Of a stretch of DNA of 64,000 nt, positions 6,001 to 12,000 are shown in pieces. The stretch is from assembly GCF_057098645.1 (NCBI RefSeq), contig NZ_CM169472.1; one strand, 5' to 3'. Numbering within the stretch: position 1 is the stretch's first letter; each line of letters opens with the position of its first letter. The position numbers are program-made.

Positions 6001-9000
6001 GAAATATCCTTTCAGTAAACTGTCAGTGTCGGATGCTCACCCGTGTCCGGCGCACGCACTCCACCTCACCCGTGGAGAACTCCTTAATTACCAACCTTAG
6101 CTTCGTTGGTTAGCTATTAACGCGGGTATGTAATCATTCTGGCAATGCTTAATGCCGCTGCTTTTTCCAGATTGGTGATATCCTGCTCCAGAGCGGACAG
6201 ATTTTCAGCCTGCTTAGCCCTGGCTTCATTAGCCCATTTCAGATCCTGCGCTGCATTAATTTTCTGGCGCATCCACTCATAAAGTTCATCATCGGTATAG
6301 TCTGGCGCGATGATGACGGGTTCTCGTTTCTGCATACTGATTCCTCGCGGTGCTGTTTCGCTTATCAGCCGTTAGATTTTGCCGAACTGGAAAGCGCCTG
6401 TTTAAACTCACTGAAGCTGAGAGCTTCTTCGCCTTCGGCAAGGCCTTCGAAGTATTCTTCGTAAGCCTTTTCCATGATTGTGTCGAAATCCATATCACTC
6501 ACCTGAGTTTCTTTCCAGCCAGCGACGGGCACCATTTTCGGTTTTAAACGTTTTGCTTTTGGTATACGTCATTGCGGTGAACGTGCCGTCCTGGTTTGGA
6601 AACACGCCGTACACCAGAGATTCGTTGCTGCCAAGATCGATAGTATCCATGCTGACCTCATTTCCCCTTAACGCCGGAGTAGCGGAACTGTTTGCTGAGA
6701 ACACCGTGCGGTGTCTTGATGAGTGAAATTTAGAATAACCTAAGGCATATGGTCAAGATTTTTATGTAGAAAAACCTAAGTTTTTTTGGTGTAAAAAACA
6801 CAAGTGTTTGAAAGTTTGTGCTTTTTATTACAGGGTGTGGAGAAAAAAGGGGGTTATTTGTTTGCGCTTCTTTTGCGAGCTTTAAGTAGTTCTTCAAAAA
6901 GTTTGTTGAAATTTTCAACTCGAGCACGCATCTCTGACAACAGAGCCTTTTGCTCTGACTCAGGCAGTGCGTCGAACAGTTGAAGCAACTCTTTTTGATC
7001 TTCTGTCAGATTGACTGGCTGATTATCTGGGATCGGTTCGCCTGGTTGCTTATCTTCATCTCCAAAAAGAAGCCAAGTCGGCGAGCACTGAAGCGCCTGG
7101 CTCAGTGCGAATAATCTCTTCCCCGCTGGCTGTGTTTCATCTCTTTCCCATTGAGAAATTGTTACGTGAGCCACTTTGACCAGCTTACCTAATGCGGCCT
7201 GAGACAGTTTTAATTTTTTTCGCCTGTATAAGAGGCGAGCACCGAAGGTTTCGTTTTTCATATTAGGTAATTCTAATTTTTCTTGACTTAGGTTTCTCTA
7301 CGATCTAGTTTCCTTAGGAAAATCTAAGGGGTTCGATATGTTGAAAATTGATGCTATAGCGTTTTTTGGCAGCAAAACAAAGCTTGCCAATGTCGCAGGA
7401 GTTAGGCTGGCAAGCGTTGCTGCATGGGGGGAACTGGTTCCTGAAGGTCGCGCGATGCGCCTGCAAGAGGCATCCGGCGGGGAACTTCAGTACGACCCCA
7501 AAGTTTATGACGAATATCGTAAGGCAAAGCGGGCGGGGCGGTTGAACAATGAAAATCACCACTGAACAGGTTTGTGAGGCTCTGGATACCTGGGTATGCC
7601 GACCAGGAATGACACAGGATGCAAAATGGCATCTGAATCGATCGCAGTTTGGCATTCGAATCGATCATGATTTGGCATCCATCTCCGATCACAGTTTGGC
7701 ATCACAATCGATCACGATTTGGCATGCTTCCGATCATTGATTGGCATCCTGCCAGTCACTCCGGGAATTAACTCTTTTCACCACAGTCTCCATTGCCGTG
7801 TTTAAACCAGTGGAGACGTCAATGTCCAGAAAGAGAAAATCCAGGAGCACTATGGAAACCTGTTTTAAGATCCTTCAGCTCAAGTTCGACAAGAAGCTGA
7901 CTAACCGTTGTATCGGACTGACGTTACACATCAGCGCCTCAACCGTTTTTGAGGTTCTTGCCCGCTTCAAAGCCTCTTCTCTGTCATGGCCATTACCTGC
8001 TGATATATCCCATGACACGCTGGAGAAACTCATTTTTCCGCCCAAAGACACCTTTGCATCAGAGCTTGTAATGCCTGACATGTTGTACTTCGATACGGAA
8101 ATGAGAAAACCAGGTGTGACGCGGCAACTGTTGTGGATGGAATACAAGGCACAGGCGGGTAACAAAGCGATGGGATACTCGCACTTCTGCCGTTGCTACC
8201 GGGAGTGGAAAAAAACGCGACGTCTCTCCATGCGCCAGGAGCATCGTGCCGGCGAAAAGCTTTTTATCGACTTCTGTGGTCCTACGGTTCCTGTTATTAA
8301 TCCGGACACCGGTGAGATACGCCGCGTGGCAATCTTCGTGGCCGTAATGGGGGCGTCCAACTATACCTACGTTGAAGCGTGCGAAGGTCAGGACATGATG
8401 TCATGGTTAAATGCCCACAGCCGTTGCCTGACCTTCCTGGGCGGCGTACCGAAGCTGCTCATCCCCGATAACCTCAGAAGCGCAGTGAAAAAGGCCGATC
8501 GATATGAGCCTGTCATCAACGACAGTTATCAGGCACTGGCTGAGCACTATGGCACGGTTATCATCCCGGCCCGACCACGCAAACCTAAAGATAAACCAAA
8601 AGCAGAAAACGGCGTCCTCATCGTTGAACGATGGCTTCTTGCCCGCATCCGTAATGAAACCTTCCACACGCTCAGGGCGCTGAATGCGCGCCTTAGGGAG
8701 TTACTGACAGACATGAATAACCGGCCAATGAAGGGGTACGGCAATCAAACCCGTGCAGAACGCTTCCGCATACTGGATGCGCCAGCACTCTCTCCGCTGC
8801 CTCTGGCACCTTATGAATACACGGAATACAAAGCTGTGAAGGTTGGCCCTGACTACCACGTTGAATATGCCCGTCACTGGTACTCCGTTCCACACGAACT
8901 GGTCGGTCAGCGTCTGTCACTGAAGGCGGGGCAGTCGGTGGTACAGCTCTGGCACAAGGGGCAGTGTGTGGCGCAACATCCGCGCAGCACACATGAATAT

Positions 9001-12000
9001 AAACACACAACCAATCCGCTTCACATGCCAGAGCGCCACCGGCAGCACGGGACATGGACACCGGAACGCCTGATCGAGCAGGGAAAACGTACGGGCCCGT
9101 CCACAGGCCGGGTGGTTGAATCCATGCTGAAGGCAAAACCCCATCCGGAACTGGCTTATCGTGCAGTTCTGGGGCTGCTGGCACTTCAGAAAAAATACGG
9201 CCCGGAACGGCTGGAAAAGGCCTGTTACGTTGCCCTGCACTATAACGCCCCTGACAGACGCTTTATCGACAATCTGCTGCGTCACCATCGGGAGAACCTG
9301 GAGCTTCCATTATCCCGCCAGGGCGAACAACATCCGGCATATGCTTCAGAGCATGAAAACCTGCGTGGTCCGGGCTACTACCACTGACAGAAGGAACAAC
9401 AGTATGAGTGATAACCTGTTAAACAAACTGACCCAACTGAAACTCCCGGCGATGGCCGGGAGCCTGATACGGCAGCGGGAAACGCCTCAGACCTACGACG
9501 AACTGTCGTTCGAGGAAAGGCTGACGCTGCTGGTTGATGACGAGCTTCTGAGCAGGGAAAACAGCCGTGTGGCACGGTTGAGAAAAAATGCCGGCCTGAA
9601 ATACCAGGCAACACCGGAAGGGCTGCGCTATCCGGCCTCAAGAGGTCTGCGGGCTGAACAGATGAGAGAACTGCTGAACGGCCACTACATAACCCACAGG
9701 AAAAACCTGCTGATAACCGGTCCGACAGGATGTGGCAAGAGCTGGATAGCCAATGCGCTGGGCGAACAGGCATGTCGACAGAAACACAGCGTCCGGTACT
9801 GTAGAACCGGGCGATTACTGGAACAACTGGCTCAGGGACGTGTTGATGGCAGCTGGCTGAAATATCTGAAACAGTTGCAAAAAATACAGGTTCTAATCCT
9901 GGACGATCTGGGGCTGGAACAGTTAAGTAACGCCCAGTGTAATGACCTTCTGGAGCTCATAGAGGATCGTTACGGACAAAGCAGCACGATAGTGGTAAGC
10001 CAGTTCCCGGTAGATAAATGGCATGGTCTGATGGAGAACCCAACAACAGCAGATGCCATCCTGGACAGACTGGTACATAACTCACACCGAGTGGTCCTTC
10101 AGGGAGAGTCACTGAGGAAAAATCCCCCGGTAGTGGAAAGCAGCGAAAAAACGCGTTAAAAAGCGGTAGAAAAAGTTAAGTTCCCGGTTGATCGAATGGA
10201 TGCGAATCGCTGATCGGACTTCGATGCCAATCCGTGATCGAATAGAGCGGAATACGCAACAGGAGCAGGCGACGATATTAATCACGGAAGCATTCTGGGC
10301 TCTGAAAGAACGCCCGAACATCGATGTTCAACGCGTCACGTTTAATGATGGCGAGGTTGATCAACGGGCGCTGGGCGTTAACCGGGTGAAGATATTCGAA
10401 CGCTGGAAAGCTATCGACACCAGAGATAAGCGTGACAAATTCACGGCGCTGATTCCGGCAATTATGGAGGCTATCCGGATCAGCGATTTCAGATTGTATT
10501 GTGAAATTACTGACGGAAAAAGCATTACGTACATGATCGCCGGGTTAAACAAAGAATATGGCGATGTGGTGGAGTCCGGGCTGCTTTTTGCGGATCCAGT
10601 TGTTGTGGAACGTGAGACTGACGAGCTTATAGAAAAAGCTATTGCTTTCAAGCACGCGTATCGTCAGCAATACCAATATTACTTTGCAGATAAACAAATG
10701 TCTGCCAGGGGTTCGTATGAGTATCGATGCACTACGATGGGCTAAAAAGGTGAAAACCGGCAGTTCATCCAGTAAGTCAGTATTGACCTGGCTTGCTGAT
10801 ATGTGCGGTGCCGATTTGTGTGCATACCCGTCTGTATCTGCACTGGCAGAAGTAACGGAACTGAACAAAAAGACTGTGCAGGACAGCTTACGACACCTGA
10901 TGGAGATTGGGTTAATTGTTGATACCGGTGAGAGAAAAGGCAGAACAAAGCAAATTGTGGTGTACCGACTTATCGGTGTAGAAGAAAGTGTTGCCGAGCC
11001 TGAATACACCCAAAAACGGGAGTCTTTAAAGGTGGGTAAAATTGGTGCTGTTAATAAAAACAGTACCGAAAATGGTTATGTTTCAGCACAAAACAGACCC
11101 AAAAACAGAACTCTTAGCTGCATGGAAAATAACCAAAGACACCCAAATTTTCCATCAAAGACACCCAAAAACGGATCACGGAACCCAAAGGAACCCAAAG
11201 ATCTAAACCCCACACATAACGCACGCGAGAGTGCTCCGACCAGTGAGCAGGAAGTTTTGTCGTTACAGGCAGCCCCCCCTGTATTCCTGTATGGCCTGAG
11301 CGAACCCATCGGAAAATTCCCGATGAGCGATAGCTGGTATCCGTCACGGGATTTTCGACGACGGGCTGCGTTGTGGGGGATGGCTTTGCCGGAGACAGAA
11401 TTTACACCTGCTGAACTTGCCGCCTTCCGGGACTACTGGGCAGCGGAGGGGAAAGTGTTTACGCAGATTCAGTGGGAGCAGAAATTCGCCCGTCACGTAA
11501 ATCACGTCAGGGCGCAGGTTAAACCAGTCAGCAAAGGGGTAAACCATGCAGCAGCACCAGGTGGCACCGCATCACGGGCAGTTCAGGAAATTCGGGCAGC
11601 ACGTGAGCAGTGGGAACGTGAAAACGGATTTATCAGCGACGGAAACGGCCTGGAAGCTGTGGGAACTCATGGGGGAGGTTTATTCGAACCGCTGGACCCA
11701 GAAGAACGGGGCCGCACCATCGAAGCTCTGGATTGCACAGATTGGCGCGATGACTGAGCAGCAAATCCGGCAGGTCTGCCGCCAGTGCATGGACCGCTGC
11801 CGGGCGGGTGAAACATGGCCTCCGGACCTGGCTGAGTTTGTGGCACTGATTTCGAAAAGCGGAGCCAATCCATTCGGTCTGACGGTGGATGCTGTGATGG
11901 AGGAGTACCGCCGCTGGCGCAATGAGTCCTGGCGATACGACGGAAGTGATAAGTACCCGTGGTCTCAGCCTGTGCTGTATCACATTTGCCTCGAGATGCG

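Follow-up and report, generated by a model that had tools for sequence, protein, structure and literature searches.

Is the run of short direct repeats that follows the dicC homologue of a lambda-like prophage a replication origin, or is it one end of a mobile element that has landed in the next gene? The question is raised by a 64,000-nucleotide stretch of contig NZ_CM169472.1 (RefSeq assembly GCF_057098645.1), which we refer to throughout as the window and number from its first letter. We are highly confident that positions 7620-10258 are one complete ISSso4-type copy of an IS21-family insertion sequence (IS), that a simple transposition brought this copy into codon 24 of a phage gene of the ydaT/ydfX family and duplicated 6 bp of target, and that the repeats are owned by the IS. 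The event is an ordinary insertion of a known and currently mobile IS that is common on conjugative plasmids; nothing about it is novel, and it is already understood. Its significance reaches little beyond correct annotation, and we advise against labelling the repeat cluster as an origin of replication.

Boundaries of the element

The boundaries were fixed by two independent tests, namely comparison with other copies and reconstruction of the empty site. The unit occupies 7620-10258 on the plus strand, is 2639 bp long and complete, and has 5'-TG...CA-3' ends (TGC...GCA), starting with TGCAAAATGGCA at 7620 and finishing with GCGGAATACGCA at 10258; the left and right repeat clusters align as imperfect inverted ends. 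Matches with 100% coverage and identity lie at unrelated E. coli sites, and both termini are identical in the window copy and in the nine other copies that were fetched, which sit in a dynamin-family gene, on a colicin plasmid, next to traD, in a phage terminase gene, in a DEAD-box helicase gene, and elsewhere. This discrete unit, with the same ends at ten independent sites, upholds the view taken in the first-pass annotation that the repeats are IS21-family terminal repeats.

The same hexamer, ACAGGA, stands directly outside each end (7614-7619 and 10259-10264), the suffix of the left flank being the prefix of the right flank. At nine of the ten insertion sites (the window and eight others) the element is bracketed by a direct duplication of its own, 4-7 bp in length, and the remaining copy shows 3 bp only. 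Target duplications in the IS21 family are 4-8 bp long. For IS5376 the duplication is 5 bp (PMC10122671).

Removing 7620-10258 and one ACAGGA in silico leaves an empty site that shows 100% identity, over 763 bp, to alleles without the insertion; these occur in many genomes, O26, O103, and O145 Shiga-toxin-type E. coli prophage loci among them. This reconstruction had been proposed with the first-pass annotation, and it restores an open reading frame (ORF) of 183 amino acids that agrees with the intact alleles over the full length compared. In the alleles of the phage gene that lack the insertion, the repeats are wholly absent. The window's own junction between IS and phage DNA has no match among 5,426 complete E. 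coli genomes, and so this particular junction is a possible strain or lineage marker.

It might be asked whether an IS-mediated rearrangement, either recombination between two copies or the movement of a composite transposon, could have produced the same arrangement. One of the other copies, on plasmid pGF60-D, does have flanks that are unrelated and match over 3 bp only, which is what recombination between copies would leave behind, and the prophage in the window carries a second IS, of the IS3 family. At the locus considered here, however, both flanks are halves of one gene, the 6-bp duplication is perfect, the empty site is exact, and the motif of the repeats occurs nowhere else in the window, whether whole or in part. 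We regard a rearrangement as highly improbable and retain simple insertion.

The terminal repeats

At the left end there are five direct copies of CGATC-N4-(A/T)TTGGCAT, at 7639-7655, 7662-7678, 7686-7702, 7709-7725, and 7731-7747, with start-to-start spacings of 23, 24, 23, and 22 bp. All five had been noticed at the outset, as copies of an 18-bp motif; the repeat itself stands, with a conserved core of 17 nt. A sixth, partial unit is found at the very tip, within 7620-7638 (TGCAAAATGGCAT being 7620-7632). Given the pattern matches and the spacing of 22-24 bp, this partial terminal unit and the five phased repeats (7620-7753, plus strand) are presumed to be sites L1-L6 for binding of the transposase, IstA.

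The right end (10188-10258, minus strand) holds only two full inverted copies, at 10224-10240 and 10200-10216; it also has one more CGATC half-site (about 10189-10193) and a terminal segment of 18 nt whose last letters are ACGCA. Mirrored, inverted copies therefore do exist, as the first-pass annotation had said, but there are not five of them: the tally is five plus a partial unit on the left versus two plus a half-site on the right. When up to two mismatches are allowed, the repeat pattern has seven matches in the window, all within the two IS-end clusters, where 1.37 would be expected by chance, and none of 100 shuffles reached seven.

The ends of IS21-family elements have been described as carrying multiple direct repeats, "usually at least two" (L1/L2 and R1/R2), 23 bp apart, with a reactive CA end (PMC10122671). 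The window element shows every feature of the family that sequence can reveal: its ends are TG/CA, each end holds several repeats spaced by about 23 bp and inverted relative to those of the other end, and the target duplication is short.

Could the five direct repeats nonetheless be the iterons of a phage replication origin, with istA and istB merely nearby? They are phased, direct, about 23 bp apart, and close to phage O/P-like replication genes, all of which an origin would share. Yet the uninterrupted locus, 100% identical across the empty site, is without them; they accompany istAB, always equally far from the TG end, on chromosomes, on plasmids, and in non-phage surroundings; their inverted counterparts exist at the other end; and a better iteron candidate lies inside the O-like gene, where ACCCAAA occurs six times at 11008-11199. 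The empty-site comparison and the movement of the repeats with the IS together refute the iteron reading, which we consider vanishingly unlikely. The first-pass annotation had itself named what would overturn it, namely repeats that lie within a phage replication gene and lack matching inverted copies at the opposite end of the IS; we looked for this, and the window shows a different arrangement. We take the repeats as presumed transposase-binding sites of the IS, probably bound by IstA, and not as phage iterons.

Two mildly unusual features remain, and both belong to the element alone: the long left array and a Dam site in every repeat. The array of five to six phased sites is unusually long and fills about 130 of the approximately 230 non-coding bases upstream of istA. 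The Dam site, GATC, is present in every IS-end repeat, CGATC being the invariant half-site; five GATC fall in the left 110 bp (7640-7735) and three in the right 50 bp (10190-10239), against 2.7 per kb in the window overall. With a GATC in every repeat, Dam methylation could affect all of the presumed transposase-binding sites at once. In IS10 and IS50, transposition is coupled to replication-fork passage via Dam hemimethylation. We can offer only as a doubtful suggestion that in ISSso4-type elements Dam hemimethylation gates the recognition of the ends, and perhaps also the expression of istA, and that the additional repeats on the left could soak up transposase as an autoregulatory sink; if the gating were true, transposition would be tied to the passage of the replication fork as in those two elements. 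No literature linking IS21-family elements with Dam was found.

Two diverged relatives of the ends (L014, at 88%, and L015, at 77%) are decayed fragments. The former has kept both right repeats, and the latter has lost two left repeats, with mutations in others; we set both aside as a guide to repeat constraint, for which decayed fragments are uninformative. When a left end is joined to a right end, as in tandem IS21 copies, no convincing -35/-10 pair can be seen in the junction by eye.

The istA and istB genes

Between the two sets of repeats lie a long istA and then a short istB, on the same strand and with a gap of 16 nt. The first-pass annotation had proposed this pair, and both proteins pass the NCBIfam cut-offs for the IS21 family. 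istA (7852-9387, plus strand) encodes a DDE transposase of 511 amino acids, recognised by NF033546, by Pfam, and by alignment with IS5376. It scores 284.6 bits against NF033546, "IS21 family transposase" (cut-off 160), and 72 bits against Pfam Mu-transpos_C_2, and its residues D140, D206, and E252 align with D124, D187, and E233 of IS5376 IstA (PDB 8b4h and 8q4d; E about 7e-14), which form the catalytic DDE triad of that enzyme (PMC11208146). istB (9404-10159, plus strand) encodes an AAA+ helper ATPase of 251 amino acids with Walker A GPTGCGKS and Walker B ILDDLG, scoring 205.7 bits against PF01695 (IstB_IS21) and 257.8 bits against NF038214 (cut-off 200). The protein is identical to WP_001282653.1, the RefSeq "IS21-like element ISSso4 family helper ATPase IstB."

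For istA, the ATG at 7852 has AGGAG 4 nt upstream and is the RefSeq start of the identical protein WP_045147483.1. An alternative in-frame ATG at 7822, 10 codons away, has GGAG 6 nt upstream. IS21 has a transposase/cointegrase pair, and the two in-frame starts seen here, each with its own Shine-Dalgarno-like sequence, appear to recall that pair. The RNA fold of 7745-7870 includes a hairpin at about 7786-7817 that covers the GGAG before ATG 7822. We gave this hairpin no weight as a sign of translational control, since the z-score is weak (-2.06, with 10 of 200 shuffles folding equally well). The RefSeq start has an AGGAG of its own. A promoter and terminator scan of 6800-11000 predicted no plus-strand promoter-like site in the left end of the IS, no outward promoter in the right end, and no plus-strand terminator anywhere within the IS.

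Proposed mechanism of transposition

By analogy with the IS21 family, the phased CGATC...TTGGCAT repeats at both ends would be bound by IstA. The helix-turn-helix (HTH) domains at the N-terminus of this DDE transposase would recognise CGATC and TTGGCAT, the two half-sites in every 23-bp unit. Synapsis of the two ends would be the work of an IstA tetramer, with cleavage at the terminal CA-3' and use of the resulting CA-3'OH. IstB, an AAA+ ATPase that assembles into decamers, would bend the target DNA and then recruit and activate IstA, and a staggered strand transfer would give rise to the 6-bp ACAGGA duplication. For IstA synapsis and for target bending and recruitment by IstB in this family, we refer the reader to PMC10122671 and PMC11208146.

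Other copies and the name of the element

Among complete E. coli genomes, the 2639-bp unit is covered to 80% or more in 299 records, with identity of up to 100% and as many as 34 places in one genome. Plasmid copies come mainly from Escherichia, and also from Salmonella, Shigella, Klebsiella, and others, mostly on conjugative plasmids; among the best matches listed, the hosts are mostly chicken or poultry isolates. The presence of identical copies on the plasmids of several genera, and in as many as 34 places of a single genome, argues for recent mobility, and judging from sequence the window copy is probably still active.

Strain GF60 has the element at about 29 chromosomal places and in copies on four plasmids, which points to ongoing expansion. 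The pGF60-D copy mentioned above (L002; NZ_CP172189.1, 10104-12742) is otherwise identical; it has a truncated colicin-A gene on one side and a truncated relaxase gene on the other, and its limited flank match suggests recombination between two IS copies rather than simple insertion.

How should the element be named? Isoforms of an IS are recognised at a level of about 95% DNA identity. The window element is 99.7% identical to the ISSso4 of plasmid pCT, with 7 mismatches in 2639 bp and the same length and ends, and the pCT copy is listed as ISSso4 (PMC6361801). A Shigella sonnei plasmid copy, in which IstA and IstB are both named ISSso4, is 96.3% identical in its DNA (97 differing positions and one indel) and likewise has five left and two right repeats. 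Counting aligned positions and including the stop codon, IstA agrees with this copy at 500 of 512 (97.7%) and IstB at 245 of 252 (97.2%). Unlike the ISSso4-named IstA of S. sonnei, the window IstA is called just "IS21 family transposase" by the Prokaryotic Genome Annotation Pipeline (PGAP). On these comparisons, ISSso4 or a close isoform is a supportable name.

The interrupted gene

The first-pass annotation had placed the insertion in the gene after dicC, and this is exact. The upstream gene (7338-7565, plus strand) encodes a Cro-like dicC homologue of 75 amino acids whose end overlaps the start of the interrupted gene; it passes the DicC model NF007282 with 167.6 bits (cut-off 130), matches Pfam P22_Cro, and is identical to K-12 DicC at 63 of 76 positions (83%).

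The phage ORF is split as had been described. Its 5' fragment (7549-7619, plus strand) holds codons 1-23 and 2 nt, and gives the protein piece MKITTEQVCEALDTWVCRPGMTQ, which ends at 7619; the ORF that opens at 7549 with MKITTEQVCEALDTWVC reads on into the IS repeats and stops at 7740, after 63 amino acids. The 3' fragment (10259-10745, plus strand) begins with the 6 nt of duplicated target and continues in frame from 10265 for 159 codons and a stop, in keeping with the 160 or so amino acids first estimated. From within the right end of the IS, a 185-amino-acid ORF (10188-10745) exits into this fragment. We recommend a single annotation, that of a disrupted ydaT/ydfX-family pseudogene, for the ORF fragments at 7549-7740 and 10188-10745.

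The reconstructed intact product matches Pfam YdaT_toxin (PF06254) over residues 59-131 with 24.8 bits (cut-off 21), a domain that all of its close homologues carry, and over its first 96 amino acids it shares 87% identity with K-12 YdfX. The annotation given to the intact allele is "toxin YdaT family protein" (WP_000705622.1, 183 amino acids), and the allele follows a "Cro/CI family transcriptional regulator." The homologues available for alignment are nearly all close E. coli relatives, and among 14 of them M1, E6, W15, R18, P19, and M21-E24 are invariant. Because the gene is severed after residue 24 of 183, and because several of residues 1-24 are invariant in homologues, the insertion should abolish the product of this ydaT/ydfX-like gene. 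The probable inactivation suggested by the first-pass annotation is thereby borne out, and the accompanying label of early regulator comes from position and family.

Might the gene have escaped inactivation? A functional C-terminal fragment could be imagined, translated from in-frame starts in the right end of the IS (TTG 10188, ATG 10200, or ATG 10224) on read-through from istAB, or the gene might already have been dispensable or non-functional. In keeping with this, the 185-amino-acid ORF does read out of the IS, a plus-strand terminator is not predicted there, and the ydfX of the K-12 Qin prophage, which lies after dicC, is itself naturally truncated to 96 amino acids, so that truncated forms are tolerated in cryptic prophages. 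However, the sequence before each of the three starts contains nothing like a Shine-Dalgarno site, and such a fragment would be without residues 1-24 and their invariant positions. Loss of the N-terminus would also damage the DNA-binding domain if the fold is that of CP-933P YdaT, where the POU domain covers residues 3-90 (PMC9986795). We find the escape of this gene very doubtful, and inactivation remains our reading.

What might have been lost? YdaT of prophage CP-933P binds DNA as a tetramer, is functionally equivalent to lambda CII, and has a POU-type HTH domain followed by a tetramerisation helix (PMC9986795). Like the window gene, the ydaT of CP-933P/Rac stands directly after a cro-like gene (ydaS/dicC) and before the replication genes. 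From its position, between dicC and the O/P-like genes, and from its family, we infer that the interrupted gene may be the counterpart of lambda CII and hence an early regulator. The prophage has probably lost its cII-position gene, and loss of this product should remove a lysogeny-establishment function, with the maintenance of an existing prophage unaffected.

In other assemblies, three proteins (P0026, P0028, and P0059) join a YdaT N-terminus of 62-93 amino acids, in frame, to the C-terminal portion of a phage replication protein of the DnaC/IstB-like (PF01695) type. We considered and rejected these as further IS21-type insertions; they are deletions that fuse ydaT to a DnaC-like phage replication gene, and they mark the interval from ydaT to the DnaC-like gene as a recurrent deletion site in cryptic prophages.

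Evidence on the other side

Some results count against parts of this account. The Pfam rve domain scores 32.1 bits in IstA, marginally under its cut-off of 32.6, although NF033546 was passed by a wide margin. For the interrupted gene, whose role as a regulator is putative, a sequence search of the PDB with the reconstructed protein returned marginal matches alone (8bt1, which is CP-933P YdaT, at E = 0.21, and 3c4r at E = 0.34), and its AlphaFold2 model, built from a shallow alignment of 14 sequences, has a mean predicted local distance difference test score of 44, too poor for fold comparison. Because the scan predicts no plus-strand terminator within the IS, polar silencing of the replication genes further down the operon is at most conjectural. 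Finally, the name ISSso4 rests on proxies, the pCT and S. sonnei copies, and not on the ISfinder reference.

The surrounding prophage

The host locus is the early-right operon of a lambdoid (lambda-like) prophage. Divergent from dicC is a dicA-like repressor gene (6854-7261, minus strand) with Pfam HTH_3 and Phage_CI_repr matches and 63% identity to K-12 DicA. Beyond the interrupted gene comes a replication-initiator-like (O-like) gene (10717-11757, plus strand) with Pfam HTH_36 and DnaT domains, and downstream of this a lambda-P-like gene. Intact loci have the order dicA-like, cro-like, ydaT, O-like (annotated as "DnaT-like ssDNA-binding domain-containing protein"), and replication protein P.

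The six plus-strand copies of ACCCAAA (for example GACACCCAAAAACGG, and in tandem GGAACCCAAAGGAACCCAAAG) are packed within 190 bp of the O-like gene, between the regions that encode the HTH_36 and DnaT domains of the initiator-like protein; the plus strand of the whole window has four copies elsewhere. The iterons of the lambda origin have the corresponding place in gene O, and the ACCCAAA cluster is likely the real replication origin of this prophage.

The second IS of the prophage lies at about 15100-16400 on the minus strand. It contains an IS3-family transposase ORF at 15167-16057 (NF033516, 312 bits) and an Rfam match to the ALIL frameshift pseudoknot at 15983-16099 (120 bits).

Several further RNA features were found with Rfam. 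On the minus strand at 5300-5774 there are matches to the small RNA (sRNA) DicF (5723-5774), to isrK (5412-5488), and to the C4 antisense RNA (5300-5387), the last two overlapping the 5' end of an ORF for a Rha-family regulatory protein (4685-5539). This region resembles the dicA-side operon of a Qin-like prophage to which an antirepressor module under antisense control, in the style of P1/P7, has been joined. Elsewhere, a sok antitoxin RNA (hok/sok) is matched at 14497-14667 (plus strand), STnc100 (plus strand) directly adjoins the AgvB anti-GcvB sRNA (minus strand) at 17365-17616, and a P22-type sar antisense RNA lies in the late region at 39146-39212 (minus strand). The window contains no transfer RNA (tRNA) genes, and a similar prophage, that of E2865, has tRNA-Ile and tRNA-Arg after Q.

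Comparison with known systems

With IS21 and IS5376 the window element shares an istA-istB operon, the DDE triad, an AAA+ helper in IstB, the terminal CA, multiple direct repeats spaced by about 23 bp within each end, and a short target duplication. Within this common plan there are several differences. The element is about 0.5 kb longer than IS21 or IS5376; its IstA, at 511 amino acids, is about 110 amino acids longer than the IS5376/IS21 type (approximately 400), and similarity to IS5376 IstA is distant, at E = 7e-14 over residues 85-383. Its left end has five to six repeats, compared with the "usually at least two" described for the family (PMC10122671), and the sequence of the repeat differs from that of IS21 and IS5376, with a GATC in every copy in the window element.

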